A DNA stretch of 64,000 nt from a bacterium (GTDB taxonomy: Bacteria > Actinomycetota > Acidimicrobiia > Spongiisociales > ZC4RG35). The number at the start of each line of letters is the position of its first letter. Within the stretch, counting starts at the first letter, position 1. Below the pieces are notes generated by a model. The model made no database searches and was not told the origin of the DNA. It was given only the letters and a program-made list of their open reading frames with translations. Made by a program: the position numbers and the translations under genes. The stretch is taken from the NCBI GenBank assembly GCA_028824015.1, contig JAPPFC010000030.1, positions 98 through 64,097 of the forward strand, written 5' to 3'. Shown piece after piece: positions 1 to 58,498 of this stretch.

Positions 1-2923
1 AGTATTCGGGGTTTTCGGCACGAAGGTCGTCTGCTCTGAGCGTCAACCACTCTATGGCTCTTTTGCTTTCGTCCGGCGTGATATGAGGCACCTGGCTTGC
101 GGCAATACCAGCGAACTGCCCCACGGTTGTGGTGGCGAACGGCTCTTCGGCTGTTACTTCCCAGGAGCATGCCACATAAAGGACACCGGTCAACGCGTCC
201 AAACCGAAACCTAAGTTGTGTTGGAGGGCACGGTCTATTCCGGCGAGTTTCGGGTTTACCTCTCTGATTGGTCTTGGATCCTCGGGAGGGGGTTCTGCGC
301 CCCTGGTTGTTGAAGTAGTGATAGGGACAGGATCAGGAAGGGTTTCAGCAGCCCACTGGTGTTCGTATGCTCGCAAGTCCACGTCTGTAGGATCTGGGCT
401 TTCATCAATCACTATTTCGTAGAATTCGTCCACAGTGATGCTGGCACTGGTCAGACCAAGGTGGAGGGACTCGCTGCGTAAGCAGGAAGCGAAGGCAAGT
501 TCGGCAACACTGAGAGCCTCAATCCATAAGAATGGCTCCGGCTGGGAGTTACCGCAGGGCGGGCGGGCGAGGATCTCTTCGAGAATCAGCGAAATGGCCT
601 TTACGAGATTGAAAACTGCTCTTGGTTGCTCCTCTGTAGGATCGGTAGCTGGGTCGATGTGAACGGGGAACCCTCTTCTCGTAGCCAGACCCTCAAAGCC
701 CACCGTTCGTTTGTAGTTCGCTCGCTCAAGCTGTAACAGGGCCATTGCCACAAGCCCGTCGGCACTGTAGTGTTCCAAAACCTGGTGGAGTCGGGCAATC
801 AACCACGGGTATATGGTCATGCTCTCAAGGTTCTTCGCTCGATCGTCTCCATATCTTCCTGGCTCAACAGCGGAATAGACCAGGTGTTGACCCAACTCCT
901 GCATGACAGCCGATAGTTGCGAACGGTGGCTTCTAATGGGTTCGGGGTAGCCGGATGCTTGGTGTGGGACATCCACTCTGTCAAGCCGGACTCCCGGTGG
1001 TGCGTCATCCCATGCACCTGTGAAGGTATCCCTGGCCTCGGGGGAGTCAAAGACCTCAGACAATAGCCGACCGGTTAATTCCTCAATACCTAGCGAATCG
1101 TCCTCGAGGGCTTGGAACAGGTAATCGTTCCAACCCAGCGTCACAAGTTGACGGTTTCGCTGGACCACTCGGAGAGGCTGACCTACGCTGGCCTGGTGGT
1201 CGCTTACAAAGCCGATTTGAAGAGCCTGAAAATCAGTTACTTCGGCTGCCGATTGCAAGGCTTTTTCCATGTGCTTTAACTTCCATAGGATGCCAGTAGC
1301 GAAAGCTGACAAGTTGGGCCCACCCGCGGACGGATCGATGAAGTCAACCATGCTGACCGCCACAGGGACCGGCCGCGGCAACACATGGTATTCGATGCCT
1401 AGGTTCAGGTTCGCTAAATGCCATCCGTCATCGGTCTTGTCCACCATAGGCCAAGCGGATAGCCATGGAAATTCTAGAAGTGCTAACGCACGTTCCACCG
1501 CGGCCGATTCGGCTGCGGCCGACCACTGAGTTTCACCCCACATGGGATCGATGAATATGCCCGAGGGAGGTCTGCCGCCCAGAGGAAATGTTTTACCGCT
1601 GCTTCGCCACAATTCCCACGCGGCAACCAAGTCAGGAGAGAACACTTCTGTGGCAGCTTCCATTCTCGCGAAGTCGCGGAGGAAATACCAAAGGTCCTCG
1701 GAGCATCGAGCAGAGGTACGCACCAACCAAAGAAAACCCCGAAAATGGCAAGAGGGATGCCCCCCTAGAGACAAGTGTTTGTCGGGGTGAGCGGTTATTT
1801 GGAGGGTGAACACCTGGGCGTCAGGCTCGATTGGAAACGCTCCCGCGTCGGATACCAGGGCGGCTCCCGGAGCAATACGCCGCAGACTCTCGACACCTGT
1901 TTGCATTCTGTTCAAGAAAGAGGGTGGCGACAGGCCTGCAACGACATCCACAATGAGCACCTGACGAGGGGAATAAACAACTGCCCAGTGGGGAGGGGAT
2001 CCGTGAGAAGCTCTTACGGGTCCAAAGACGTGATGGCCAGAGCCCGCCAAAAGGTAAGCAACTCCCCGTTCCATCTTACGAATCCAACGATGTTCCACAG
2101 CAGGGTCAAGACTGTGAGCCTTCTCCGCCAGCGCCTCACCCATCTGGCAAAGAGAATCAACGAGCATGCCCGCAGGGACGGGCACATATTCCTCATGAGA
2201 CAATCGGACAGCCAGCAAGGCTCCGAAGGGGGCACCAACGCCGGATGAATCAAAGGACAGATCGTCGGGTGTTGCCGACAGGTATTCCAAGGCGCGTCGT
2301 ACCCGGTCGGGAAATCGGGATGCCCCGACCTGGTCGGAAATGTCCAGCAGAGTTGCCGCAGCAGCGAATTCCTCACCGGTAATGAACGGCGTTGCATCAA
2401 GTGACTCCTCGCGGCTTGACCAGGTCGGCTCAAGGACCGAGGCAACATGATCAACCCTTCTCAGCACCAACTCCACCACGTCTTCCAAACCGAATCCCAA
2501 ATGCTCAACGAGAACCGGATCGATAACGTTTGAAAGAAGGCGAAGACTCTCGACAACCTCTACCGGTTGCTCGAGAGATCCGGGCAGGAGCCGATACAGA
2601 TCCCCTCCCCAGCGAACCACCACCTCCAAGCGGGCATCATATGGAAGGAAGTCCTCCCGTTGCCACAGATTGGGATCTTCCCGGCGAGCAGCATCAACCA
2701 ACACCGGAAGGAGGGCTGGAGTGGCTTGCAGGGACCCCGACCTGGTCCGCCTTATGACAGAATCGAACACCAACTCCAGCGAGGCAAGACGGTGACAGGA
2801 TGTCGGCGAGACACTGGCAGCTTCCAACAGGGCCAGTAGCGACGAAAGAGACACTCCATCAGCAGCGTCACCAACAGACCCGGCAGCCCGCTCCCTAAGT
2901 CCTCCGCCACCACAATCAGTCAC
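1..2923 (-). CDS. Large hypothetical protein (>970 aa; C-terminus runs off the window at position 1). GTG start at 2923 preceded by GAGGA.
   Basis: I read the minus strand by hand. From the GTG at 2921-2923 there is one uninterrupted frame to position 1 with protein-like composition (e.g. ...LEQPVEVVESLRLLSNVIDPVLVEHLGFGLEDVVELVLRRVDHVASVLEPTW...). The ORF track does not list it, presumably because the ORF has no stop inside the window. GC is ~55%, against ~68% for the rest of the window. No family recognised. Confidence 0.55.
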   Translation of the reverse strand, partial: MTDCGGGGLRERAAGSVGDAADGVSLSSLLALLEAASVSPTSCHRLASLELVFDSVIRRTRSGSLQATPALLPVLVDAARREDPNLWQREDFLPYDARLEVVVRWGGDLYRLLPGSLEQPVEVVESLRLLSNVIDPVLVEHLGFGLEDVVELVLRRVDHVASVLEPTWSSREESLDATPFITGEEFAAAATLLDISDQVGASRFPDRVRRALEYLSATPDDLSFDSSGVGAPFGALLAVRLSHEEYVPVPAGMLVDSLCQMGEALAEKAHSLDPAVEHRWIRKMERGVAYLLAGSGHHVFGPVRASHGSPPHWAVVYSPRQVLIVDVVAGLSPPSFLNRMQTGVESLRRIAPGAALVSDAGAFPIEPDAQVFTLQITAHPDKHLSLGGHPSCHFRGFLWLVRTSARCSEDLWYFLRDFARMEAATEVFSPDLVAAWELWRSSGKTFPLGGRPPSGIFIDPMWGETQWSAAAESAAVERALALLEFPWLSAWPMVDKTDDGWHLANLNLGIEYHVLPRPVPVAVSMVDFIDPSAGGPNLSAFATGILWKLKHMEKALQSAAEVTDFQALQIGFVSDHQASVGQPLRVVQRNRQLVTLGWNDYLFQALEDDSLGIEELTGRLLSEVFDSPEARDTFTGAWDDAPPGVRLDRVDVPHQASGYPEPIRSHRSQLSAVMQELGQHLVYSAVEPGRYGDDRAKNLESMTIYPWLIARLHQVLEHYSADGLVAMALLQLERANYKRTVGFEGLATRRGFPVHIDPATDPTEEQPRAVFNLVKAISLILEEILARPPCGNSQPEPFLWIEALSVAELAFASCLRSESLHLGLTSASITVDEFYEIVIDESPDPTDVDLRAYEHQWAAETLPDPVPITTSTTRGAEPPPEDPRPIREVNPKLAGIDRALQHNLGFGLDALTGVLYVACSWEVTAEEPFATTTVGQFAGIAASQVPHITPDESKRAIEWLTLRADDLRAENPEY

Positions 2924-3235
2924 TGTTCATCCTCAAGTATGCCGTTTCGGGACCTAACCGAACTCTCTGCCATGTGAAGGGACCCACCCCCCACTACGGC
3001 TCCTGACTCCACCCAAGCATCCCCCTGACGAAGACACCAGAAGGCTGCTCAGAATTCATCCGGTTTAGGGATGCTGGTGATCAAAGTGGGTCTCCTCGCA
3101 ACCCAGCCGCCTCCGCCAAATACCCGAAACCCTCCATGCCGTGCGAGGTGCAAGGTTCCACCCGCTTCGTGGTCACAGCGTAGTTCCGCTCCCCACGGAA
3201 AAAACTACCCTGCGTAGCCTGCCCGGCCTGGCGGC

Positions 3236-3790
3236 TCATATGGCGCCGCTGAACATCAAGCCAAAGATTGCTAGTAGCACTGCAGCGACGATGGTAGTTC
3301 CAACCACGATCCTTGCCGCCGTTTCCCTCGCCCAAGCCGCACCCGCGGTGTCAGCGGTGCGAGTCATGCCCCAAATGCCCGCCAGCACGGTCCAGGCACC
3401 GGTGCAGATCGCCCACCACATAACACCCAAACACCAGGCTCGGCCGTCACAGGGTGATGGGCCCCCAGACAGGATGCTCAAACCGATTAACGCCCCCACC
3501 GCAAAGGAGGCGGAGATCGCCATCAGCACTCCGCCGTAGCGCTCCACCACCTCGGTATAGCGCGCCGAGCCGTAGGACGCAACCGGCCCGCCGCACAGCA
3601 GCATGCCGAATAACGGCGGCACCACCACCACCGCATGCACTAGGTCGGGTACCCACTCCTGGGTACTAAGGGCCCACAAGAGCCCTACCACTCCTCCATA
3701 CCGGAACGCCCACCGCAAATAGGCCGCCATCATCTGATCTGGCACCTCGGCCAGCCACTCGACAAACTGCCCCAGCCACTGCCAGATCAT
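3236..3790 (-). CDS. Hypothetical multi-pass membrane protein
   Basis: 184-aa ORF with several hydrophobic helices (GGVVGLLWAL..., VLAGIWGM..., IVVGTTIVAAVLLAIFGLMF). It lies directly upstream of, and co-oriented with, the large ORF at 1-2923, inside the low-GC island. Confidence 0.45.
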   Translation of the reverse strand: MIWQWLGQFVEWLAEVPDQMMAAYLRWAFRYGGVVGLLWALSTQEWVPDLVHAVVVVPPLFGMLLCGGPVASYGSARYTEVVERYGGVLMAISASFAVGALIGLSILSGGPSPCDGRAWCLGVMWWAICTGAWTVLAGIWGMTRTADTAGAAWARETAARIVVGTTIVAAVLLAIFGLMFSGAI

Positions 3791-4417
3791 CGCAGCCGCC
3801 TTTCAGGCGGACTATCAAACCAGAAAGCAACCTCGTTAACGGCCGCCTCCCCCGACATTCGTGTAAGTTTCGAGGACGGCTCGGGTCCGGTGGCGGCTCT
3901 TGGCCTGATCGCGGACAGTACCCCACCAGACCCTGCACAAGAATCCGGTCAGTGATCCAAGTATACGGTTTCGCATCCCGCCACCACTGCCATCACCACC
4001 GCTGGAACAGCCCGGCACCACATCCGCCTCTAATTCTGTCACCGGCAACTCCATACGGATCTTCTCCTCAAGGAAGAAAACACCCTCCAATACACCACCT
4101 TCTTGTTAGCGGCGGTACTCGGATCGCACGACAGATACGGCTCCACCGCTTCCGGCCAGGCCAAGCGGGCAGACCTCACCCGCCACATCGCTAATCCCTG
4201 CAAACACTTCATCGACTCCCACTTCCCGCATCCTCCCTTTGTTGGTCCGATTTGTGATCTCGCTTCACGCAGCAAGCGTAATCGCGAAACGCCATCTAAC
4301 GCGGCAACTGCCCAGCGGGATTGTTCCAAGACATAGCGTAGAGATGCGGAGCAAGGAACCAGCGGCGTCGAATCTCGCCGCCTAAGTTGGTCTAAATCTG
4401 GCGTATCCCGACGTTAA

Positions 4418-4858
4418 CTACGGATTGTAGAAGTGCCATATGTTGAAGGCTGTCCCCTCTCCCAGTGTCGACGCTATTTGGTAGAGCGCGGCATCTGCAG
4501 TTACAAGAGGACGCTGGGGAGATATCTTCTCCAAAAGCACTGCATCGGCGAGGCCGACCTCCAAGTAGTAGGGGTTGCCGGCGGCCTCCCTACTCTCGAC
4601 TACCACCTCCTCACTCTCTTCGATTAGCTGACGCAGGCGCACCAGAAAACGAGCATCATCGGAGGCCTTTAGCAGATTGCAGGCCTCCGTAAGCGTGTTT
4701 GGAGTTACGATCACATGAGCAGTTACCTCAATGGCTCGCAACAGGGCGTCGTATTGTTCCGGCACGAAATTACGGGTTCTGCGATGCTTTCGAATCAGGG
4801 ATCTACTCACAGAGCCCACCACCAGTAGGACGAGTAGGTTGGCGTCGATAAACATCAA
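4418..4858 (-). CDS. PIN-domain protein (VapC-like putative toxin)
   Basis: 146 aa. N-terminal MMFIDANLLVLL has the conserved first Asp. Acidic residues are spaced as in PIN domains (D5, E in TEACNLL, D in GLADAV, D in VTADAAL). Its start overlaps the upstream small ORF by ATGA. Confidence 0.45.
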   Translation of the reverse strand: MMFIDANLLVLLVVGSVSRSLIRKHRRTRNFVPEQYDALLRAIEVTAHVIVTPNTLTEACNLLKASDDARFLVRLRQLIEESEEVVVESREAAGNPYYLEVGLADAVLLEKISPQRPLVTADAALYQIASTLGEGTAFNIWHFYNP

Positions 4859-5127
4859 CCCGAGGGATTGTCTCGATTCTTGACCGAAAGGACCTCACCC
4901 CGGCTATCCATCTCTACTACCTTGTGATACCGAGTACGTCCTCCGAAAGCCACCGCAATAGCATCCCCGCCACTTGAAAGCGGCCTCAAGAAGCTAACGG
5001 TGACTTTCCATCCGTCACCATAGGTCGCGAACACGACCTCCTCCAGACGAAGTTCCCCAACCCCTTCTCCAGCGAACACCTCTCCGACGGTCGCTTTTGC
5101 TTTCTTCACAGCCTCGGCTAAATCCAT
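4855..5127 (-). CDS. Small protein upstream of, and overlapping, the PIN gene (putative antitoxin partner)
   Basis: 90-aa ORF. Its stop overlaps the PIN start by 4 nt (translational coupling). Sequence not recognisable as RHH/AbrB/Phd. Confidence 0.35.
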   Translation of the reverse strand: MDLAEAVKKAKATVGEVFAGEGVGELRLEEVVFATYGDGWKVTVSFLRPLSSGGDAIAVAFGGRTRYHKVVEMDSRGEVLSVKNRDNPSG

Positions 5128-5713
5128 CCCTCTCTCATCTTACCCATTCCCTAGGGTGTGGCCGCCATCCCGATCTTCAGTCGAACCCGGCAGAAGGGTC
5201 GTGTCCCGCATGACGTGGACCCGGGAGGGAGGGCTTTGTAGGGCGAAGCTCGCTGATGGGACGGATCACATAGGGAGGCTCCGCACACGCGATTACTTCC
5301 CTTCCCGATAGCCCGCTGTCTTTAGCGCCCCTGCCTCGGTTAGCTGGTTCACAGCCGAGCCAACGACGACCGGAGGCCGACCGTTCATCCCAACGACCGA
5401 CGAAACGGTGAAGGTCGGACTTGCAGGGAACACGGCATTGAAGACACCGTAGGATTCGTGATGGCGATCATTGAAATTCCACTCCATACTTGAGTGGGCC
5501 CCTGGGCTGGGGCGGGTCTGACCCGATCGAAATTCGGCTTGGTGCCTTTTCTGGGATCTGTCGGCCTGCTCCCGGCCTGGGGGTGGGTAGTTCCCCTGAC
5601 AGAGCGGATGTGACCTGATAGGAGCCTTGCTCTTGCCACCGGAGTGGTCTGTCCACCGCTTTTTCAGGTCAAGGGGAAACAGGTAGCGGATTCTAGGAGA
5701 GGAGAAGAGGCTC

Positions 5714-6937
5714 ATGGCAGAGGATGATCGGGTTGTGTTCGGTGGGGTGGACACCCATCGAGATGTTCATGTCGCAGCGGTGGTGGATACGGCCGGTCGG
5801 GTGTTGGCGTCATCGCCGTTCCGAGCCGACGCCGCCGGCTATGAACAACTGCGTGACTGGCTGGGGTCACACGGCAATCTTGCCCGGGTCGGTGTGGAGG
5901 GTACCGGCAGCTACGGCGCCGGTTTGGCCCGCCATCTTATGAGAGTCGGTGTTGAGGTAGTGGAAGTGAACCGTCCGAACCGGCAGCTCCGCCGCCGGTA
6001 CGGCAAGACCGACACCACCGACGCCCAGGCCGCAGCGCGGGCGGCTCTGAACGGGCAGGCCAGCGGGGTGCCCAAAAGCAGCGATGGACCAGTCGAGGGG
6101 ATCAGGATGCTGTCGGTGGCTCGTCGTTAGGCGATCAAGGCCCGCACACAGGCCATCAACCAGATTCATGCTCTGGTGGTTACTGCTCCCGACCAGGTCA
6201 AACACCACCTATCGGGTCTTTCCCCAAAAGCCCGTGTCAAGGTCTGTGCCGCGTTCCGGCCTGGCACCGCTGACACCACCACCCGACACGCCAAACAGGC
6301 CCTACGACTGTTGGCCCGCCGATACCAGACCCTCACCGCAGAGATCAAAGAGATGGACACCGAGATCCGGCGTCTCTGCGCACAGGCCAATCCCGCGCTG
6401 TTAGCCACCCCCGGTGTAGGTCCTGACATCGCCGCCCCGCTGCTAATCGCCGCCGGTGACAACCCCGAACGGATGACCACAGAAGCGTCCTTCGCCGCGT
6501 TGTGCGGTGTGAGCCCCGTCCAGGCGTCCTCGGGCCATATCGTCCGCCATCGCTTGAACCGGGGTGGAAACCGCCAGGCCAACCAGGCGCTGTGGCGAAT
6601 AGCCACTATCCGCACCGTTAGAGACCAGCGCACCATCGCCTATGTGAAGAAACGCAAAGCAGAAGGCAAAACCCGCCGAGAGATCATCCGCTGCCTCAAA
6701 CGGCACATCGCCAGAGAGATCTATTACCTGTTGACCAACCCCCCGCCAACACCCTCCGGCGCCGATCTCCGCTGTCTACGCCGAAACGCCCAAACGACCC
6801 TTGCTCAGGCCGCCACCGCCCTCCACAGCCACGCCACGCGCATTTCACGACTCGAAAGAGGCCTCGACCACAACCACCAACTCGCTACCCGATACCACCA
6901 CTGGCTCACCACCCCCAAACCCGATTTGACAACATAG
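5714..6937 (+). mobile_element. IS110-family transposase gene interrupted by an in-frame TAG at 6128-6130 (N-terminal DEDD part 5714-6130; C-terminal part 6131/6176-6937)
   Basis: N-terminal GGVDTHRDVHVAAVVDTAGRVL...GVEGTGSYGAGLARHL is the IS110 DEDD catalytic region. Downstream ...PGVGPDIAAPLLIAAGDNPERMTTEASFAALCGVSPVQASSGHIVRHRLNRGGNRQANQALW... is the IS110 C-terminal domain. Both parts are in the same reading frame (5714 and 6176 both = 2 mod 3). The residues just after the stop (AIKARTQAINQIHALV) are the expected conserved linker. Confidence 0.8.
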
Positions 6938-6971
6938 GCGCATCCCACCCTGGGTTTGGTGGTTTTAGGCT

Positions 6972-7700
6972 AGCGGGTCTCCTTTCGGTCGGTGTTTTCT
7001 GGCTTGTGCTTGGTATGAGCGGAGGCGGTAGCTGTCGCCGGTGATGGTGAACACCACGCTTTTGTGGAGGAGTCGGTCGAGATGATGTCACGCCGAGGTT
7101 GGTGGTGAGGATGATCGATCCTTTCTGGTATCGGCGCGAGATCACTTGGAACAGTGTGGCGGCGTCTTCTGCCGGCATTGGGAGATAACCGAGTTCGTCG
7201 ATGATCAACACTTTCGGGGTGTTGAAGAACCGCATGGTTCTGGCCCATCGTCCTTGTAGGGCTGCTTTGCGGCAGCGTGCGGCCAGGTCGGCTGCGGTGG
7301 TGTAGTACACCTTGTGTCCGGTGTCCACCGCAGCCCGTCCGAGGATGACCGCCAGCATGGTTTTGCCTACTCCTGGTGGTCCGATGAATAACACGTTGGT
7401 GGCGTCAGCCAGATACGCCCCGGTGACCAGTTCCCGTATGAGTTTCTCGTTGATGCTGGGTTGTGCTCCGAAGTCGAAGTCTTCCAGTTTCCATCGGGTG
7501 GGGAAGTTCGCCAGTTTCAACCGGGTTGCCCATCGGCGGTGTTCGGCGGTTTCCACCTCGACCCGCAACAGCTCCTCGAGGAACTCGGTATGACCCGCAC
7601 GGTTCTGTCGTGCCCGTTCCAGGTGGGTGGGGAGCGCCTCGGCAGCAGCCGCCAGGTTCAGGTAGGCCAAATGTGAGAGGAAGGACTCTGCGCCAAGCAA
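6972..7700 (-). pseudogene. istB: IstB-like ATP-binding helper of an IS21-family element; frameshifted near the C-terminus and lacking a cognate istA
   Basis: Walker A GPPGVGKT, Walker B LIIDELGYLP and IILTTNL match IstB. The conserved tail SVVFTITGDSYRLRS sits in a different frame from ~7090. The next upstream gene on this strand is pfkA, not istA. Confidence 0.6.
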
Positions 7701-7833
7701 AGGTGACGGAGATTTGACTGGGGAGCCGTTTGTGGCTCCCTGGAGCGGTGTGAAGGCACCCTGGTCCCAAGAAACCCGCTGCCTTAGGTCTTGTGTAAGA
7801 CGCAGACGCGGTACGGTCCGTTACTGCCGATCC

Positions 7834-8949
7834 TCAGAACGCCATGGCGCCGTGGATGGCCTCCAGGCGATGGATCCGTTCGTTCTGGAGGTCTGAGGTC
7901 CCCTCGGTGAGGAGTTGGGTCTCCTGAAGGACGGAGTCGAGCGGGAAGAGCTTCACGAATGCGTCGCTGGTGGGCTCTCCCCGATCGGAAGTCGACCAGC
8001 ACACCATCACTCCCGATCTGCCGGCCAGGATGGCCTGGACGGCGACCAATCCGAACCGACTGGCCAACATCCGGTCGCGAAAGGTCGGGTTCCCGCCCCT
8101 TACGATGTGGCCGAGGACGGTCGCCCTGACCTCCACGTGTTGCAGGTCGGCCACCGCTTCCGACAACTCCGCCACCAAGGCTTCGGTCGGAATCTTCACC
8201 CCCTCGGCCTTCAGGACCAGCACTCGCCTCTTCTGCCGGCGCCCCGAAAAGCTGTGGCGGACCAGGCGTTCCAGCCTCTTCACCACCTCCGTGCGCTCCG
8301 GGTTCTTCTCGGGGAGCAAGACCGCATCGGCACCGGTAGCGACGGCGCCCGCCAGAGCCAGGTATCCGCAGTCGCGCCCCATCACTTCCACGATGAAGGC
8401 GCGATGATGGGACCGGGCGGTGTCGCTGATCCGGTCGCAGGCATCCAGGATGGTGTTCAGCGCGGTGTCGACCCCCACGGATTCGCGGCTGTGGCCGATG
8501 TCGTTATCGATCGAGGCCGGGATGCCCACCACCGCCAACCCGTGTTCCGACCAGAGTGCATGGGCTCCCTCCATGGATCCGTTTCCGCCAATGACCAACA
8601 GCGCCTCCACCCCGCTGTCCCGCATCACCCGAGCAGCGTGGCGTCGGTGCTCCGGATCGAAGAAGCGTGTGGAGCGTCCCGTGCCCAGCATGGTCCCCCC
8701 CTGCCCTCCGACTCTGGGAAGTTCAGGGATGGGCGCCAGTCCTCCCGAGTGTGGATCGGTTTGGACCAGAGGTCGGAACTTCCCATTGATCAGTCCCTCG
8801 TATCCCCCTTCCACTCCCACCACCTCAGCTCCGGCCGACGCCGCCACCTGCACGGCCGAGACGATGGCGGCGTTCATTCCGGGAGCGTCGCCTCCCGAGG
8901 TCAGGACGGCCATCTTGCCGATCTGGGGTCTGACGGTGTTACAGGGCAA
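7834..8949 (-). CDS. pfkA: ATP-dependent 6-phosphofructokinase
   Basis: MAVLTSGGDAPGMNAAI..., GGDGS-type motifs (VIGGNGSMEGA), MGRDCGYLAL. The real start may be the internal Met at ~8913. Confidence 0.85.
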   Translation of the reverse strand: MPCNTVRPQIGKMAVLTSGGDAPGMNAAIVSAVQVAASAGAEVVGVEGGYEGLINGKFRPLVQTDPHSGGLAPIPELPRVGGQGGTMLGTGRSTRFFDPEHRRHAARVMRDSGVEALLVIGGNGSMEGAHALWSEHGLAVVGIPASIDNDIGHSRESVGVDTALNTILDACDRISDTARSHHRAFIVEVMGRDCGYLALAGAVATGADAVLLPEKNPERTEVVKRLERLVRHSFSGRRQKRRVLVLKAEGVKIPTEALVAELSEAVADLQHVEVRATVLGHIVRGGNPTFRDRMLASRFGLVAVQAILAGRSGVMVCWSTSDRGEPTSDAFVKLFPLDSVLQETQLLTEGTSDLQNERIHRLEAIHGAMAF

Positions 8950-9075
8950 AGGGATCAGGGGGGTGTAGCGGGCGTCTCCTCAGGAATCAGGGTCTCACTT
9001 TACCCGGCCCTGCTCCCCTCCCCCGGTGGCGGCGTCTGCCGGTCCCGACCCCTTGGGGTTGTTAACCTTCGCCAG

Positions 9076-9738
9076 ATGACAGGTTTGCCGCCCGGGCGCC
9101 GGGTTGCAGTGTTCGCAGGCGGCGACTCACCCCCGGTCCAGGCCGCACGGTGGATTCCTGGAGGGACGTTCGTCATAGCCGCCGATTCGGGGCTCGACCA
9201 CGCTCACCGTTTGGGCTTCGACGCCGACCTGCTGGTGGGCGACCTTGACTCTGTGTCCCTGGGCGCTTCCGATCGCCACCGCGGAGAGGTGGAGGAGCAC
9301 TCGGAACACAAGGACCACACCGACCTGGAGTTGGCGTTGGAGGCAGGGCGGAGGAGAGCCGACGTCATGGTGGTGGTGGGCGGTCACGGAGGGCGACTGG
9401 ACCACCTGCTGGCCAATGCCGAGTTGCTGGGCGACCACCGTTGGGCTGGTTCGGAGATACTGTGGCTGGCCGGTGAGGATCTGGCGACCGTGGTCCGCCA
9501 TCGGGCCACGCTCCACGGGAGACCCGGAGACTTGGTGTCCCTCATTCCCGTGGGCGGTCACGCCATCGGTGTCACCACCAAGGGTCTACAGTGGTCCCTG
9601 CAGGAGGCCACCCTGGCGGCCGGAAGCACCCGGGGCGTTTCCAACCGGTTGACGGGCACCGTAGCCGAACTCGCCGTTCGCCAAGGGGTGCTGCTGGCTG
9701 TTCAACCGGGCGCAGTCCTGACCGGACCTGGGACTTAA
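9076..9738 (+). CDS. Thiamine pyrophosphokinase
   Basis: Motifs GDLDS, KDHTDLELAL, GGHGGRLDH, SLIP, TTKGLQWSL. This is the C-terminal in-frame part of the long spurious ORF 7915-9738. ATG at 9076. Confidence 0.7.
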   Translation: MTGLPPGRRVAVFAGGDSPPVQAARWIPGGTFVIAADSGLDHAHRLGFDADLLVGDLDSVSLGASDRHRGEVEEHSEHKDHTDLELALEAGRRRADVMVVVGGHGGRLDHLLANAELLGDHRWAGSEILWLAGEDLATVVRHRATLHGRPGDLVSLIPVGGHAIGVTTKGLQWSLQEATLAAGSTRGVSNRLTGTVAELAVRQGVLLAVQPGAVLTGPGT

Positions 9739-9826
9739 CCTTCAGCCAGAGACTGTGTCTATTTCTTGACTACATGGTTACTGTTGGCGATCCCGGAGCA
9801 ACGAGGCGAGGGCCTTCGGGCTCCTT

Positions 9827-10795
9827 TCAGTTGTAGACCCCCGGGTTTGCGCACCACGGCAGGCGTCTTCCCGCAACGCCGGCCAGGAGGTTCTCGACGG
9901 CTCGGGTGGCCATGGCCAATCGGGTGCCGCGGCTTGCCGATCCCAGGTGGGGTATCACCAGGCAGTTGGGTAGGGAGAGCAACTCGTGGTCGGCGGGGAT
10001 GGGCTCGGGTTCGGTCACGTCGAGCGCCGCCGATCCGATCCGGCCGGACCGGAGAGCCTGGTAAAGCGCGGCGGGATCCACCAGGGGCCCGCGGGCGATG
10101 TTGACCAGGGTGGCGGTGGGTTTCATCCGGACAAGGGCGTCATGGTCGATCAGGTGATGGGTCTCGGGGGTGTAGGCGGCGGTGACCACCACGTGGTCGG
10201 CCTCCGAAAGGAGGTCTGCCAAGCCCCTGTAGGCGGCCCCCGTCTGCTCCTCCACCTCCGGCTTGGGTGACCGGGAGTTGTACACCACCCGCATCGAGAA
10301 CCCCGACGCCCTTCGGGCTACCGCCGCGCCTATCCTGCCCATTCCCACGATTCCGAGGGTGGTCCCCCACAGGTCGCTTCCCAGCAGGAGGTCCGGGTCC
10401 CACTCCTGCCAGTGGCCCCCTAGCACGTAGTCCCTTCCCTCGGGGATGCGCCGGGCGGCGGCGGCCAGGAGCGCCCAGGCCATGTCGGCGGTGGTCTCGG
10501 TGAGGACGTCGGGTGTGTGTCCAACCGGTATTCCCCGGCGGGTGCAGGCGTCCAGATCGATGTTGTCGACTCCCACCGCCATCTGGGACACGACAGTCAG
10601 TCGATTACCCGCCTCCAGAAACTCGTCATCCACGCGGTCGGTGAGCATGACAAGTGCTCCGTGGGCGTCTGCGATTCGCTCCAGGAGCAGCCTTCGGGGC
10701 ATGGTCCGGTTCTCCGGCCAGGTCCAGACCTCGTGTCCCTCCAGCAATTGTGCCGCTCGAGGACTGATGGGCCTGGTTATCAATACCCTCGCCAT
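9827..10795 (-). CDS. D-isomer-specific 2-hydroxyacid dehydrogenase (glyoxylate/hydroxypyruvate reductase-like)
   Basis: NAD-binding GIVGMGRIGAAVARR, plus catalytic-region residues typical of the family. Confidence 0.8.
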   Translation of the reverse strand: MARVLITRPISPRAAQLLEGHEVWTWPENRTMPRRLLLERIADAHGALVMLTDRVDDEFLEAGNRLTVVSQMAVGVDNIDLDACTRRGIPVGHTPDVLTETTADMAWALLAAAARRIPEGRDYVLGGHWQEWDPDLLLGSDLWGTTLGIVGMGRIGAAVARRASGFSMRVVYNSRSPKPEVEEQTGAAYRGLADLLSEADHVVVTAAYTPETHHLIDHDALVRMKPTATLVNIARGPLVDPAALYQALRSGRIGSAALDVTEPEPIPADHELLSLPNCLVIPHLGSASRGTRLAMATRAVENLLAGVAGRRLPWCANPGVYN

Positions 10796-10852
10796 GGCAC
10801 CCGAGAGGATACCTCTCCCTGTGGCGGCCAGGTTGGCGGACCCTGCGGAGGG

Positions 10853-12043
10853 TCAGCTGCGGGGGATGTCCTTCCAGGCCAACTCGAGGTCCACCCGCGG
10901 CTCCCGGGGCAGACCGAGGACCCGCTCCCCTATCACATTGCGCAGGATCTCCGAAGTCCCCCCTTCGATGGAATTGGCCCGAGAGCGGAGAAACTCCCAC
11001 TGCGGACTGTGGTCCACCGCCATGCTCTCGGGGGTCCGGAATTCGTATGCCTCCGGGTAGAGCATCCCTTCGGCGCCCATCATGTCCACCGCCCAGGCGA
11101 AGGTCTGCTTGCGCAATTCCGCCCACTGGAGCTTGAGGGTGGATCCCTCCGGTCCAGGCGTTCCTCGCAACCGGGCCATCCGGTCCCTCAGGCTGGTGAG
11201 TCTCAGGGCCTCGGCATCCACCCACAGCCGGATGAGCTCATCACGGCGGGCCTGGTCGTCGCTGCCCGAGTCGCGCCAGACCTCCACCGCGGTGGCGATC
11301 GCGCCTTCTCCCCGGGGGCTGATGCTCTCCCCGATAGTCACCCGTTCGTTCATGAGGGTGGTTATCGAGACTCGCCACCCCTCCCCCACTCCTCCCAGCC
11401 GGTTGGCCTCCGGGACTCGGGCATCGGTGAGATACACCTCATTGAACTCGGCCTCGCCGGTTATCTGGCGTAGTGGCCGCACCTCCACGCCGGGCTGGTC
11501 CATGTCGATGATGAAGTAAGTCATGCCCCTGTGTTTGGGGACCCCGGGATTGGTCCGGGCGGTGAGCAGCCCCCATTTGGCGGTGTGCCCGAGGGTCGTC
11601 CATACCTTCTGGCCGTTCACCACCCACTCCTCGCCGTCACGGACAGCGCGGGTTCCTATGCCGGCCGCGTCGGATCCCGCCCCCGGTTCACTGAAGAGCT
11701 GACACCAGATCTCCTCGGCGGTGAACAGCTTGCGCAGCCACCGGTCCCGCTGCTCTGGGGTTCCGTGGACCACCACCGTGGGGGCGGCCATCCCGTAGCC
11801 GATCAGGTTGCGGCCGATGTTGTCGGTGGGGGCTCCCGCCTGCGCCAGTGCGCTGGTCACCGAGGCGGCTTCGGCGGGAGAGGCTCCCATCCCTCCCATT
11901 CCCTCGGGGAAGGAGGGCCATGCCAGCCCCAGGTCGAACTGCGCGCCCCAGAACTCCTCCCTGCCGGTCTCCGTGGGAGGATGCTCCGACAGAAGCCGGT
12001 GAACCCGCTCCTCTATGGAATCTTTCTCGGAGGTGTCACTCAT
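10853..12043 (-). CDS. Acyl-CoA dehydrogenase
   Basis: ACAD fold motifs (YFIIDMDQPGVEVRPL, GGTSEILRNVIGERVLGLP). The ORF track starts at 12466, but the protein-like sequence begins at MSDTSEK (ATG at 12041-12043). The upstream 141 codons are GC-rich junk. Confidence 0.8.
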   Translation of the reverse strand: MSDTSEKDSIEERVHRLLSEHPPTETGREEFWGAQFDLGLAWPSFPEGMGGMGASPAEAASVTSALAQAGAPTDNIGRNLIGYGMAAPTVVVHGTPEQRDRWLRKLFTAEEIWCQLFSEPGAGSDAAGIGTRAVRDGEEWVVNGQKVWTTLGHTAKWGLLTARTNPGVPKHRGMTYFIIDMDQPGVEVRPLRQITGEAEFNEVYLTDARVPEANRLGGVGEGWRVSITTLMNERVTIGESISPRGEGAIATAVEVWRDSGSDDQARRDELIRLWVDAEALRLTSLRDRMARLRGTPGPEGSTLKLQWAELRKQTFAWAVDMMGAEGMLYPEAYEFRTPESMAVDHSPQWEFLRSRANSIEGGTSEILRNVIGERVLGLPREPRVDLELAWKDIPRS

Positions 12044-12057
12044 CTCGGCCTTCCTGT

Positions 12058-12912
12058 TCAGGACACCCACATGGCCGCGTTGGAGAGGACGGTCCCCTCC
12101 CGTCCCTCGACAGACGCTTCCAGGAGGACCTTCTCCTCTTCTTCCCACATGCGGGTGACCACGGTCTCTCCGGGGAACACCACTCCTGTGAATCGGGCCC
12201 GGTAGCGTCGAGCCCTCGCCGGATCGCCGCCCAGCACGGCGTCGACCGCAGCCTTGCAGACTATCCCGTAGGTGCACAGGCCGTGGAGGATGGGACGGTC
12301 GAATCCTCCCAGGGCGGCGAAGGCCGGGTCGGCATGCAGGGGGTTCTTGTCTCCCGACAGGCGGTACAGCAAGGCCTGCTGAGGCAGGGTGGGTGATCGG
12401 ACTATGTGATCGGGTGATCGCGACGGAGCCTGATGTCCGGCCTTCGGGCCCGGGTCTCCTCCCCATCCTCCTTCTCCCCGAATGAAGAGCGAGGCGCGGT
12501 TGGTGAAAAGCAACTCCCCGGTCCGGCGGTCCGTGGACGTCACTTCCACCACCATCAGGGCTGCTCGGCCCTTGTCGTAGATGTGGGCGATGCGGGGCCG
12601 GCTGACCACCTCGCCGCTTGGCGGGATCGGTCGTTCGATCTCCAGGTCCTGCTCCCCGTGCAGCAGCAGCGCCCAGTTGATGTCCACCCCCCGGGCGGCA
12701 CCAATCGCAGCCATGGAGGTGGAGGCCGCGATCGTCCCGAAGGAGGGCAGCACCGCCAGGTCGCCTTCGTATGCATAGGAGAGTTCCCGGGGATCGGTGG
12801 GGGGCGACCCGGCGCCCAATCCAAGTTGATAGAGGATCACCCGGTCCTCGTCCCAGGAGAAATTGCGGGCCGGGAGTTCGGACGCCAGCGCGGCCTCGAC
12901 ATCGATGGGCAA
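12058..12912 (-). CDS. MaoC-like (R)-specific enoyl-CoA hydratase/dehydratase, double hotdog
   Basis: C-terminal GDKNPLHADPAFAALGGFDRPILHGLCTYG is the MaoC dehydratase signature. It ends 14 nt before the ACAD start. Confidence 0.75.
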   Translation of the reverse strand: MPIDVEAALASELPARNFSWDEDRVILYQLGLGAGSPPTDPRELSYAYEGDLAVLPSFGTIAASTSMAAIGAARGVDINWALLLHGEQDLEIERPIPPSGEVVSRPRIAHIYDKGRAALMVVEVTSTDRRTGELLFTNRASLFIRGEGGWGGDPGPKAGHQAPSRSPDHIVRSPTLPQQALLYRLSGDKNPLHADPAFAALGGFDRPILHGLCTYGIVCKAAVDAVLGGDPARARRYRARFTGVVFPGETVVTRMWEEEEKVLLEASVEGREGTVLSNAAMWVS

Positions 12913-12913
12913 C

Positions 12914-13819
12914 TCAGCCTCCCATCGCCTTGCCGATCAGCATGATCTCCTCGGTGGAGCTCATCGGGACCTCGTAGGCGGAGATGTCCCGGATCTCATC
13001 GAGATGATCGCGGACCTCCTCCACCGAAGGCACTACCTTCATCCCCGAGAACCAGCCCTGGTTGGTGCCGATGAAGATGCGTCCGTAGCGGCCCCCTCCG
13101 GCGGTGAAGATCTCATGGGTGTACTGGTTGGCTTCCGAGCACAGATACACCACCATGGGTGTGACCTGGTCCGGATCAACCAACTCGGTGAGGGGTCCCA
13201 GAAGCTCCTCGGTGAGACGGGTCCGGGCAACCGGCGCGATCACGTTGGACTTGATGTTGTACTTGGCGCCTTCGATGGCCAGAACGTTGGAGAACCCCAC
13301 CAGCCCGGCCTTGGCCGCGCCGTAGTTGGTCTGTCCGAAATTGCCGAAGATCCCGGCGTTGGAGGAGGTGAACACGAACCGCCCGTACCCCTTCTCCTTC
13401 ATGATCGGAAAGGCCGGCAACGAGACATAGAAGGCGCCCAGCAGATGGACCTCCATGACGGCCTGCAATTCATCGACAGTCAGGTTGCCGAAGCTCCGGT
13501 CCCGGAGAATCCCGGCGTTGTTGATCACCACGTCCACGGTTCCGAAGGCTTCGACGGCGGTTTGAACGATCCCCGCCCCGCTCTCGGGGGTGGCGACCGA
13601 ATCGTAGTTCGCCACCGCCTCCCCGCCTCGGTCGACGATCTCCTGGACCACCAGGTCTGCCGGGCGGTTGGAGCCGCCCGTCCCGTCGATGGCTCCCCCC
13701 AGGTCGTTGACCACCACCCGGGCTCCGCGGCGGGCAAGCTCCAGCGCGTAACTGCGACCCAGGCCGCCACCCGCGCCCGTGACGATGGCCACCCTTTGGT
13801 CGAATGTGATATCGGACAA
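12914..13819 (-). CDS. SDR-family 3-hydroxyacyl-CoA dehydrogenase-like oxidoreductase
   Basis: TGAGGGLG Rossmann motif, NNAG, YGAAK catalytic motif. Confidence 0.8.
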   Translation of the reverse strand: MSDITFDQRVAIVTGAGGGLGRSYALELARRGARVVVNDLGGAIDGTGGSNRPADLVVQEIVDRGGEAVANYDSVATPESGAGIVQTAVEAFGTVDVVINNAGILRDRSFGNLTVDELQAVMEVHLLGAFYVSLPAFPIMKEKGYGRFVFTSSNAGIFGNFGQTNYGAAKAGLVGFSNVLAIEGAKYNIKSNVIAPVARTRLTEELLGPLTELVDPDQVTPMVVYLCSEANQYTHEIFTAGGGRYGRIFIGTNQGWFSGMKVVPSVEEVRDHLDEIRDISAYEVPMSSTEEIMLIGKAMGG

Positions 13820-55960: not shown

Positions 55961-56246
55961 CGATCGGCACCCAACCCGCAGCCTTGGTCTTGGAGGTTGT
56001 TTTCGGCTGGGCCGCATCCTGCAACTTCCCATCCGACCCCAAGAGGAGCCGCTTCCACGATCTCCCTCGGGTCACCCCCAAGGGTGCCTACGCACGGGGT
56101 TAGAAAGCAGCAAGTCCAGAGACAACGGGGTTGCCCGGCTTGTCTTTCGGCTGTTAATGTGGGCCGAGATGCTTGAGGTTCTTGCCGCTGCGGCGCTGTT
56201 GGCGGGCGGTTGGTTCCAGCGTTATAGCCCTTGAGGCATTTCGTTC

Positions 56247-56840
56247 TTGGGTCAGTTCGGCCCGACTTTTGCTACTAGTCGGGGTGTCCGGCGCTTCTCT
56301 CACAGCGGCCTGTACGCGTTGGGTGTGTTGGTGTCTTCAACGCTGTTCTTACTGGGGGTCTCGGCTGCGGGGGTGTGGTTCAAGGAGATGGCGGGCCGCC
56401 GGACCTCGGTAGCTGTTGCATTGGCGCTGGCTGGACTGCTGTTGCTCTTGGACGGGATGAGGTTGTGGGGCGGGCGTTCTACTTCTTTCGGGCCGAAGCG
56501 GCAGACTCCTTACGACTGGCGGTTGAGAGGGCGGGTGGGTGTTGTCGCCTGGGGTGTCGACACGGGTTTGCCTGTTTCGACGGTGAGAGCCACGCCGTTG
56601 CCGGTGCTCGGTGTGATCCTTGCTGCTACTGGTCATTCGCTCTGGTTTTACGGACTGTTCTATGGGTTCGGTTTGACGTTGGGTGTGCTGGCCGGGTTGC
56701 CGTGGGCCCGCTCGTTCGTCCGGATTGATTGGGCGATGGCGGAACTGCAACGCAGGCATCGTAGGATCAACCCGGTTCTACTGGTCGTTCCGAGTGGCCT
56801 GACGGTGGTTGCGTTGGTGTCAGCGTTAGTCCTTGGCTAA
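56247..56840 (+). CDS. Hypothetical membrane protein (4-5 TM)
   Basis: 197 aa, hydrophobic helices. First gene of the co-oriented cluster. Confidence 0.45.
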   Translation: MGQFGPTFATSRGVRRFSHSGLYALGVLVSSTLFLLGVSAAGVWFKEMAGRRTSVAVALALAGLLLLLDGMRLWGGRSTSFGPKRQTPYDWRLRGRVGVVAWGVDTGLPVSTVRATPLPVLGVILAATGHSLWFYGLFYGFGLTLGVLAGLPWARSFVRIDWAMAELQRRHRRINPVLLVVPSGLTVVALVSALVLG

Positions 56841-56872
56841 TAGTTGTAGCTACAACTTAGCTCACTAACATC

Positions 56873-57307
56873 ATGTCGAGTGTGAGCGACATGCGGCGTT
56901 ACACCCGACCACGCCCGGGCCTTTATGGATCGAGTGAGTTCCTCGAGTTTCTCGGACGGCCGCTGGCGCAACCCGCTCAGCGTGATCGAGGTGGGGCTGT
57001 TGAGTCCGGAGCGGAGGCAGGGCATGGTGTTCTGGAGTTGGGCGTCAGCGAATCAAGACCAGACAGTGGATTCGTGAACGTGAGGCTGGACAGCACCGGC
57101 CAAGTCGTGCGGGCCAGGTTCAGCGGCTTCATCCCGGGGTATCGGCTGGCACCCGGGGATGAGTTGTGCGTGGAACTCGTGGACGATGGGTGGCGGACCG
57201 TTCCCGAAGTGCGTCACACTATCAAGCACCGCGATCGCATTGAATTCTGGGGGGTTAACCGCCTGACCGGTGAGTTCCGGCTCCTAGCCGAGAATTATTA
57301 CGAGTGA
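56873..57307 (+). CDS. Hypothetical soluble protein
   Basis: 144 aa, no recognisable motifs. Confidence 0.4.
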   Translation: MSSVSDMRRYTRPRPGLYGSSEFLEFLGRPLAQPAQRDRGGAVESGAEAGHGVLELGVSESRPDSGFVNVRLDSTGQVVRARFSGFIPGYRLAPGDELCVELVDDGWRTVPEVRHTIKHRDRIEFWGVNRLTGEFRLLAENYYE

Positions 57308-57314
57308 TCAAGCC

Positions 57315-57926
57315 TTGAACCTGGAGTGGATGGGTGTTCCGGTGCTGGTGGTGGCCGCGTTGCTTCTCTTAAGCGGCCTGCCGAAGATCGCAGATCCCAG
57401 ACCCGTGGCCGGAACCATGGAGTGGCTGTACGATCAGGTATCGGCACGCTGGCGCGGTTCGGGCGGTTCCCCGGTGGATCTGTCTCGTCCGGGCCGGTTG
57501 CTGGGACTGGCGGAGGTGGGTGTGGCCGGTTGGGTGGTGCTGGGACCGTCGTGGGGGGCGGCGGTCGCTTTGACTCTGCTGGCCGCGGGGTTCGCGGCGG
57601 CGGGCCTTGTGGGCGCCTTGTCTGACGTGCAGGTGGCTTGTGCCTGTTTCGGCAGGCAGGGGCGACCGCTGGGTTACTTTCATGTCCTGCTGTTTCCGGT
57701 CTGGGTAGGAGCGGCGTGGTGCGTGGGTCGGGTCGAAGGGTTCGGAGGGTTGGATGAGCGTTTGCTGGCGTTGGGGCTGTGCTGTGTTGGTGTCTTGTGC
57801 GTGTACCTGGTGAGGATGTGGGCGGCGTTGATGCCGTTGGCTCAGCACCGGCGTCGGGCAGCGATGCGGGTGGGTACTGTGACGCGGGTCGCCCATGGAG
57901 AGGCAGAGTGGTTGTTGCCGCGTTGA
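57315..57926 (+). CDS. MauE/DoxX-like membrane protein
   Basis: 203 aa, 4-5 TM, with the N-terminal VAALLLLSGLPKIADP pattern of the MauE family. Confidence 0.5.
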   Translation: MNLEWMGVPVLVVAALLLLSGLPKIADPRPVAGTMEWLYDQVSARWRGSGGSPVDLSRPGRLLGLAEVGVAGWVVLGPSWGAAVALTLLAAGFAAAGLVGALSDVQVACACFGRQGRPLGYFHVLLFPVWVGAAWCVGRVEGFGGLDERLLALGLCCVGVLCVYLVRMWAALMPLAQHRRRAAMRVGTVTRVAHGEAEWLLPR

Positions 57927-58498
57927 TCGTCTCCATAGTGGCCCTGGTGGTGAGTGCTCTGTGCGCGCTGGCGGTGATGGAGTTGCTAGCAAGTCGGTCC
58001 CACGGCAGGACGGAGGTAGATGACTCTCTGATCGAAGAGTTCGAGGTGCCGGCGAGCGTGGCTGGCACCGCCGCCAGTTCCCACGGTCTGCCGGAACGGA
58101 TCGACCATCTGGACCGTCATCTGGCTCTGTTCCTGTCCCCCATGTGTGCTCACTGCGCGGCGATCGCCTCCTCCCTGGGCGGGATGGTGCCTGATGACTT
58201 GACGGTGGTGGTAACCGCTTCTGCTCCCGAACGTATGCGTGTCTGGTCCCGGGATCGGGGCTTGTCGACTGACGACGTGGTCTTTGACGACGACATGTCC
58301 ATCGTGGGAAGCCTCAAGGTGGCGTCCAGCCCTACGGTGGTGGGCTTCGGCGCGGGCCGGGTGGTCTTTGCGGCCGGCATCGGAGGTAAGGCCGCGTTGG
58401 AGAAGTTGTTGGAGCAATGCTCTTCTGGGTTCTCCGAGGACATCTCTGATCTCTTGGGGCCAACGTCCGGGCAGGAACCCGGCGGCTCCCCGGGGTGA
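57908..58498 (+). CDS. Membrane-anchored thioredoxin-fold thiol:disulfide oxidoreductase (MauD/TlpA-like, CAHC active site)
   Basis: GTG start overlapping the MauE stop by 19 nt. N-terminal TM anchor, then LFLSPMCAHCAAI (CxxC). Confidence 0.55.
   Translation: MVVAALIVSIVALVVSALCALAVMELLASRSHGRTEVDDSLIEEFEVPASVAGTAASSHGLPERIDHLDRHLALFLSPMCAHCAAIASSLGGMVPDDLTVVVTASAPERMRVWSRDRGLSTDDVVFDDDMSIVGSLKVASSPTVVGFGAGRVVFAAGIGGKAALEKLLEQCSSGFSEDISDLLGPTSGQEPGGSPG

Follow-up and report, generated by a model that had tools for sequence, protein, structure and literature searches.

What is encoded by the long minus-strand reading frame that runs off the left edge of a 64,000-nucleotide stretch of acidimicrobial DNA (contig JAPPFC010000030.1 of assembly GCA_028824015.1, positions 98 to 64,097 of the forward strand; hereafter the window), and is the gene still functional? 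Very probably the frame is part of a defence gene that belongs, as a divergent representative, to the Upx family and has lost its function in this population. Upx defends against phages with one protein, in which a terminase sensor is coupled to a PD-(D/E)xK nuclease; its structure and mechanism became known in 2026 (PMC13099982, PMC13601566).

Minus-strand translation of the window from position 2923 to 1 yields 974 codons and zero stops. The frame opens with a GTG (2923-2921), preceded by GAGGA (2934-2930) at a spacing of 6 nt, the whole translation start occupying 2921..2934 on the minus strand. An in-frame TGA at 2929-2927 makes a start further upstream impossible. An earlier, sequence-only reading of the window had described this single stop-free frame with its GTG and its GAGGA, and the description holds. 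The open reading frame (ORF) is missing from the mechanical ORF list solely because it runs off the window. Codons 1-974 (1..2923, minus strand) encode a polypeptide 100% identical to P0001/P0064. The NCBI annotation of the metagenome-assembled genomes (MAGs; MDE0601250.1 / MDE0231188.1, ‘hypothetical protein’) begins at residue 75, MVDAARRED…, and thereby loses window positions 2702-2923 (minus strand), including a SLLALLEAAS-SPT motif common to full-length homologs, whose N-termini are alignable from about residue 23 on. Since the annotated start deletes 74 conserved residues, the GTG at 2923 is, on the evidence of the alignment, the better one.

Fifty-five homologs were found in 5.8 billion proteins, most of them 1,176-1,270 aa long and covering 97-99% of the fragment, with E-values down to 0. 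None of the 55 carries a functional name, and two are labelled ‘hypothetical protein’. In an exhaustive search, the family profile matched 1,976 representative clusters at E ≤ 1e-3 and 415 at E ≤ 1e-30, many of them in end-to-end alignments; given this number of homologs and clusters, the 974-codon ORF is not a product of chance. Among reference genomes, the close clade is nearly confined to Actinomycetota. It is found in Acidimicrobiia MAGs, including Ca. Poriferisocius, Aldehydirespiratoraceae and Microthrixaceae, and in Amycolatopsis, Lentzea, Glycomyces, Micromonospora, Actinoplanes and Pedococcus, and there is a single distant copy in Sorangium. All 45 full-length homologs are single uninterrupted polypeptides, and the nearest intact relative of the window's copy, P0002, shares 79% identity with it.

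Relationship to Upx

The 974-aa fragment by itself has no match in Pfam, PADLOC, NCBIfam or the PDB sequences (phmmer), which agrees with the sequence-only reading, in which no familiar motifs had been noticed. The PADLOC copy used was v2.0.0 (2023), and the Pfam copy was scanned without the PF28173 (Upx-like) model. Pfam searches with full-length homologs gave DUF6918, Mre11_2nd and HEF_HK, all of which were rejected as sub-threshold noise. The link to Upx became visible because full-length homologs and profiles were used, direct scans of the fragment having given nothing. One of the 55 homologs carries a weak precomputed match to PF28173 ‘Upx-like’. The sequence-only reading had also pointed to collections of defence-system models. 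The PADLOC Upx model (PDLC02221) fails to match the window fragment but gives weak, C-terminal-only matches to five of seven homologs and to the frame-corrected C-terminus described below (E 5e-6 to 5e-3).

Profile comparisons carry the link much further. A family profile built from 45 sequences (A1) has a sole match in the PDB, chain 9wuf_A of 1,272 aa, with E 3.3e-7. This chain is the Upx of Salmonella enterica (SeUpx), which consists of an N-terminal domain (NTD, 1-515), a middle domain (MD, 516-714) and a C-terminal domain (CTD, 715-1272) (PMC13099982). The match is colinear, with profile positions 691-1163 corresponding to residues 755-1239 of the chain, and places the family motif GEIDLL…IWVIEAKD opposite GDIDLL…VLVIECKD. 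A broader profile that includes members of 21-25% identity (A5) aligns to the same chain with E 6.4e-23, positions 542-1178 corresponding to residues 576-1233; since this alignment starts at chain residue 576, sequence homology reaches into the Upx middle domain. When the family was compared by hhalign with a canonical Upx set (12 fragments, all PF28173 and each of ≤836 aa), the probability was 99.8% and E 2.6e-30 over 672 columns, from family position ~497. Homology detected with hhalign and A5 thus covers MD and CTD and leaves the N-terminal domain outside the reach of sequence profiles.

Predicted structures extend the comparison to the whole protein. An AlphaFold2 (AF2) model of the full-length homolog P0009 (pLDDT 89.4, pTM 0.86) was compared with the PDB by Foldseek, and the sole significant match was 9wuf, ‘Cryo-EM structure of Upx’, at E 1.2e-29 (TM 0.60/0.58 over 1,349 columns, 13% identity), the next PDB match having E 0.18. 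The model of the window's own 974 aa (pLDDT 88.2), in which the nuclease core is not contained, likewise matches only 9wuf (E 3.9e-19, TMq 0.59, 1,094 columns). Because residues 500-974 alone could give a TM of at most ~0.49, some of the N-terminal region must also superpose. The fold of Upx is reported to be without structural homologs in the PDB (PMC13099982), which makes a full-length match specific. In the predicted models, the three-domain fold of Upx (NTD-MD-CTD) is matched by the family. By profile and fold comparison, then, the family of ~1,200 aa is a distant clade of Upx that resides mostly in Actinomycetota, and the label ‘uncharacterised’ given by the sequence-only reading no longer applies (PMC13099982, PMC13601566).

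Projected on the window, the NTD-like, putative sensor region comprises residues 1 to ~500 (1424..2923, minus strand), and its similarity to Upx is structural only. The MD-like region follows with residues ~501-655 (959..1423, minus strand); the boundaries of both regions are approximate and are set by the hhalign start and by the position of the A5 alignment within the Upx MD. Residues ~656-974 (1..958, minus strand) form the helical front of the C-terminal domain and overlap with the A1 alignment.

Two sets of conserved residues accompany this layout. In the C-terminal domain, D1068, E1083 and K1085 (P0009 numbering) are invariant even in an alignment of 21-48% identity. This D…ExK core, at family positions ~1068-1086, is aligned to GDIDLL…IECKD of 9wuf_A, in which the PD-(D/E)xK core residues are D1161/E1176/K1178 (PMC13099982). 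The core lies outside the window and is absent from the window's copy as encoded. In the N-terminal region, a charged cluster (2456..2638, minus strand) consists of D96-x-R98, D135, D148, E151, R155 and R156 in window numbering, at columns that are invariant or at least 90% conserved; the D-x-R and D135 are still conserved to at least 90% in the broad A5 alignment. The predicted model places the D-x-R/acidic cluster on a β-hairpin and two helices (window residues 96-156). SeUpx has a non-canonical nuclease pocket in its NTD, formed by D122, D127-x-R129, E147 and D173 (PMC13099982), and the charged cluster is a candidate equivalent of this DxR/acidic pocket. For the NTD of SeUpx on its own, an exonuclease activity has been reported that is inhibited by the MD (PMC13099982).

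The family resembles Upx in being encoded by a solitary gene of ~1,200-1,270 aa (1,176-1,270 aa among the homologs, with neighbours that differ in all eight genomic contexts), in its full-length fold match with a TM of ~0.6, in its defence-island setting, in its colinear profile homology over MD and CTD and in a D…ExK core that aligns residue for residue. It differs from SeUpx in its identity of only ~13%, in an N-terminal portion of ~500 aa that escapes detection by sequence, and in being ~65 residues shorter, and from Upx in general in its mainly actinomycetal distribution and its position below threshold in the PADLOC Upx, Pfam and NCBIfam models. Published Upx homologs go down to 16% identity (PMC13601566), and the published phylogeny includes 2,093 PSI-BLAST homologs (Supplementary Data 5 of PMC13601566). 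ExK-dependent anti-phage activity and activation by the ATPase domain of the phage large terminase are known only for SeUpx, HpUpx and PbUpx (PMC13601566). The window's copy departs from Upx in another way, being interrupted by an insertion sequence (IS; the sister strain is frameshifted instead), with loss of the nuclease.

Two other groups of defence proteins invite comparison. Avs1-3, which are antiviral STAND NTPases, are, like the family by analogy via Upx, large single-protein terminase sensors with a nuclease-type effector and occur in the same islands (PMC13601566). Unlike Avs, which has a STAND/P-loop NTPase domain, the family gave no Pfam, NCBIfam or PADLOC match to a STAND/P-loop NTPase, to Walker A/B motifs or to a TPR sensor, and no structural match to STAND proteins. 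Single-gene PD-(D/E)xK defence nucleases (AbiU-1-like, NucC/Can2/Card1-type) share the nuclease core fold with the family. Foldseek matches to Can2, Card1, NucC and EndoMS are weak and not significant (E 0.2-3) and extend over ~150-200 residues only, and nucleases of these types do not have the ~1,000-residue N-terminal architecture of the family.

In an intact member of ~1,200 aa, a large N-terminal sensor would be followed by a middle domain and by a C-terminal domain with a PD-(D/E)xK nuclease at its end. In characterised Upx the activator is the ATPase domain of phage large terminases (PMC13601566), and by analogy the N-terminal region would be expected to recognise a phage protein of this kind. 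Recognition would then unleash the C-terminal nuclease, on whose ExK both the defence and the toxicity of SeUpx depend (PMC13099982, PMC13601566), and the nuclease would stop the infection and probably sacrifice the cell. Sensing target and abortive-infection behaviour are thus transferred from Upx by analogy, and the sensing step is the weakest point of the scheme, since the resemblance of the N-terminal half is confined to the fold and the trigger differs between the two Upx papers.

An IS junction and a frameshift

The sequence-only reading had regarded the gene as merely cut by the window edge. Extending the sequence beyond the edge shows that the ORF does continue, but only to codon 993, 59 nt to the left of window position 1, since an IS interrupts it at codon ~990. 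The 100%-identical proteins P0062/P0064, from contigs of 64,351 bp and 97,811 bp, end with …TRPFVGDH* at residue 993. The 97,811-bp contig matches the window without a difference over 12.9 kb, and both this contig and an independent Logan contig end 13-38 nt past the codon-993 stop. A sister contig, L001, originates from another metagenome in the series (SAMN13943214; the window's strain is SAMN13943213), and the two sequences diverge exactly at gene nt 2969/2970, 47 nt to the left of window position 1. The sequence past this junction is TGGCGATCACTGAAAGTCCCCACTCTCGATCACTGAAATTCCCCAC…, and the element starts with TGGCGATCACTGAAAGT and has an internal repeat. L001 ends, at another site, in ~50 nt that form a second terminus, which shares the 17-nt end and the internal GATCACTGAAA repeat but has different spacers; two imperfectly matching termini are the pattern expected of the imperfect inverted repeats of one IS. 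A 28-base signature of the terminus was found in three unrelated metagenome contigs. In one of them it is directly followed by IstA (helix-turn-helix (HTH) + rve + Mu-transposase C-terminal domain) and IstB, which is the organisation of IS21, and in the other two by a DDE transposase. The inserted element probably belongs to the IS21 family. The insertion cuts the ~215 C-terminal residues, and with them the entire PD-(D/E)xK core, off from residues 1-990.

L001 has no IS at nt 2969/2970. It reads GGG AAC AAA AAA CGA, with a 1-nt insertion in the A-run just before the nuclease core. Past the frameshift, NDELEN…GEIDLLAVD…IWVIEVKD goes on in the +1 frame for 169 codons, and A5 instead of A6 would restore a protein of 1,207 aa, a normal length for the family; from this frame-corrected sister copy, the ancestral protein can be put at about 1,207 aa. 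Another contig from the same sample, L042, has the same A6 in different flanks (a membrane-protein context in one contig and MTTB/DAO in the other). Its gene is a mosaic relative to that of L001, with blocks of 100% identity alternating with blocks of 88-92%, which suggests strain recombination or an assembly cross-over. Codon differences between the two copies are synonymous to non-synonymous in a ratio of 67:45 before the frameshift and 9:14 after it, a trend to relaxed constraint, with too few differences (23 codons) to decide.

With the nuclease core removed by the IS, the window's copy is most likely dead.

Among genomic relatives elsewhere, the loci L032 (6001-10512), L033 and L038 appear disrupted or fragmentary, one match being spread over 4.5 kb. 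The Acidimicrobiales chromosome OX638350.1 carries both N-terminal-only and C-terminal-only pieces of the family. These cases hint that decay of this gene family is common.

Weighing the readings

Inactivation has to be weighed against the possibility that the gene is intact and functional and that the IS junction and the frameshift are assembly products or minority alleles. All the evidence comes from short-read metagenome assemblies, in which strain mixtures, repeat breaks and collapsed regions are possible, and the contigs end within ~50 nt of the IS junction, as they would at any graph branch. The junction is, however, the same in three assemblies from different pipelines (the NCBI MAG contig, ENA scaffold_503 and the Logan contig), and its tail is a bona fide IS terminus that adjoins transposase genes elsewhere. 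An allele without the IS does exist in L001, and the two frameshifted contigs, both from one sample, do not differ at all around the frameshift (100% identity) and retain an open downstream frame with intact catalytic residues. Yet an A6 run is too short for a typical Illumina homopolymer error, and the assemblies yielded no in-frame, uninterrupted gene of this lineage, P0002 being the nearest intact relative. An intact gene is therefore rather unlikely.

It is very unlikely that the disrupted forms are themselves functional, whether as a 993-aa sensor-only decoy or regulator, as an NTD nuclease, as a split Upx or through a throttle based on +1 slippage. The uninterrupted state of all 45 full-length homologs and the dependence of SeUpx on its C-terminal ExK stand against such forms, although the 974-aa product folds confidently alone in silico, its N-terminus has the conserved DxR/acidic cluster, and an NTD acting alone has the precedent of SeUpx. 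A separate nuclease ORF shows no recognisable start or ribosome-binding site, and the 124-aa ORF called in this region starts inside the domain. The post-frameshift ORF is open for 169 codons in two diverged copies, and a +1 shift on AAA-AAA-C would exactly restore the conserved GNK-NDELEN, but the ratio of synonymous to non-synonymous differences is lower behind the frameshift than before it. As an explanation of the A-run, programmed frameshifting was set aside, since the 0 frame has no canonical slippery heptamer, a +1 shift is needed and no stimulatory element was identified; it is kept as a low-probability rival. A related speculation is that the recurrent disruption, with the A-run +1 shift in two contexts and the IS at ~990, reflects a split or throttled Upx, or that the N-terminal half senses a trigger other than the terminase; this too is decidedly unlikely. 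If the split system were real, it would be a stand-alone sensor polypeptide with a toxic nuclease that is translated separately or rarely.

An entirely different view, that the family is an unrelated new defence or accessory protein sharing with Upx just a generic PD-(D/E)xK nuclease domain, is extremely unlikely. PD-(D/E)xK domains are widespread, the family has no at-threshold match in Pfam, NCBIfam or PADLOC, and sequence comparison detects nothing annotated that resembles its N-terminal ~500 residues. However, profile homology of ~640-670 columns goes far past a nuclease core of ~150 residues and into the Upx middle domain, and the window fragment, which has no nuclease core, still matches only Upx in Foldseek.

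A divergent, inactivated Upx-family gene thus remains the preferred reading, against which several points must be set. As regards the family, the N-terminal ~500 residues are without a link to Upx at the sequence level, and the canonical set consists of fragments of no more than 836 aa. Identity to SeUpx is ~13%, the PADLOC Upx model matches weakly and at the C-terminus alone, and the window fragment matches nothing in the sequence databases. The link of the NTD is structural and comes from a predicted model in a global Foldseek alignment with a root-mean-square deviation of 8-9 Å. As regards sensing, the two Upx papers name different triggers for SeUpx, gp16 in the earlier study and the terminase in the other (PMC13099982, PMC13601566), and the clade may sense something else than Upx does, since its sensor half has diverged beyond sequence recognition. 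As regards inactivation, pseudogene status is derived from assemblies, and the three that share the IS junction may go back to one sample; L001 and L042 are 100% identical over the block that contains the A6 site, so that the second contig is not an independent confirmation; and the post-frameshift frame is open in both copies, selection on it not being settled by the 9:14 count.

A ‘hypothetical protein’ can thus be assigned with confidence to a mechanistically characterised defence family. The assignment also exposes an annotation gap, in that PADLOC v2.0.0, Pfam and NCBIfam miss the Actinomycetota clade of a superfamily of ~2,000 clusters (representatives at 50% identity). Because the models miss this clade, model-based censuses of Acidimicrobiia and of antibiotic-producing actinomycetes under-count Upx. 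In closely related strains the nuclease has been removed in two ways, by an IS insertion and by a homopolymer frameshift, which points to rapid turnover of a toxic effector. No new biological question is opened, since family, fold and sensing principle were already published in 2026.

The island and other features of the window

The gene has a GC content of 56.5%, window positions 1-8000 have 58.8%, and the remainder has 65.3%; the low GC noted by the sequence-only reading is therefore true in relative terms. Its proposal of an accessory or defence-island setting is also borne out, the gene lying in a low-GC, IS-ridden island and its homologs elsewhere in defence or mobile islands. In the eight genomic contexts the gene is solitary, its neighbours change from genome to genome, and no conserved partner gene was found in the contexts examined. 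The neighbours there include phage-type integrases, Type I restriction-modification systems (twice), GmrSD, AbiEi/AbiEii, DACNG/DACNH, Abi_C/Ymh, PemK and many transposases. This context fits a defence gene.

The individual neighbours named by the sequence-only reading fared unevenly. The upstream ORF of 184 aa (3236..3790, minus strand), taken for a membrane protein, is indeed strongly hydrophobic (grand average of hydropathy, GRAVY, 0.85), but it has no Pfam or PADLOC match to give it a family and is not conserved beside homologs elsewhere. The pair at 4418-4858 and 4855-5127 (146 and 90 aa) had been called PIN toxin-like; the resemblance is at the level of motifs, and neither ORF has a Pfam or PADLOC match, so that this label finds no support. 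The IS elements are real. IS debris bounds the island at 5462..7700 and includes an IS110-type transposase in two plus-strand ORFs, 5714-6130 (DEDD_Tnp_IS110 N-terminal) and 6176-6937 (Transposase_20 C-terminal), which is probably frameshifted or otherwise degraded. An orphan IstB_IS21 (6906-7700, minus strand), without IstA, adjoins a phosphofructokinase gene (7834-8877, minus strand). A degenerate IS21-like terminus, TGGCGATCATTGAAATT, lies at 5462-5478, 1.4 kb from the orphan IstB, and the two together look like the relic of an IS of the same kind as that interrupting the Upx-like gene, itself disrupted by the IS110.

Two large proteins are encoded beside the Upx-like gene in the sister strain, about 3-9 kb past the left edge of the window. 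On L001 these are a protein of 1,205 aa with DUF4062, TPR and PIN domains (TPR-GreAB-C-PIN type) at 7480-11097 (minus strand) and a 422-aa HEPN/Toprim N-terminal-domain protein at 12031-13299 (plus strand). No NTPase domain was detected in these DUF4062-TPR-PIN and HEPN-Toprim neighbours. Upx is reported to be sometimes associated with split-TPR variants of Avs1 (PMC13601566).

Far from this island, window positions 56001-60000 show a GC skew of up to +0.30 and an AT skew of -0.34, coinciding with a run of plus-strand ORFs. Small hydrophobic plus-strand ORFs occupy ~56.2-58.5 kb and are followed by an ORF of 1,645 aa (58495-63432, plus strand) with duplicated S-layer-homology-like repeats (186-nt period), a Gly-rich linker and many fibronectin-III-like repeats (297-nt period). 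This ORF looks like a large surface protein, its domain names having been given by reading the sequence rather than by a hidden Markov model.

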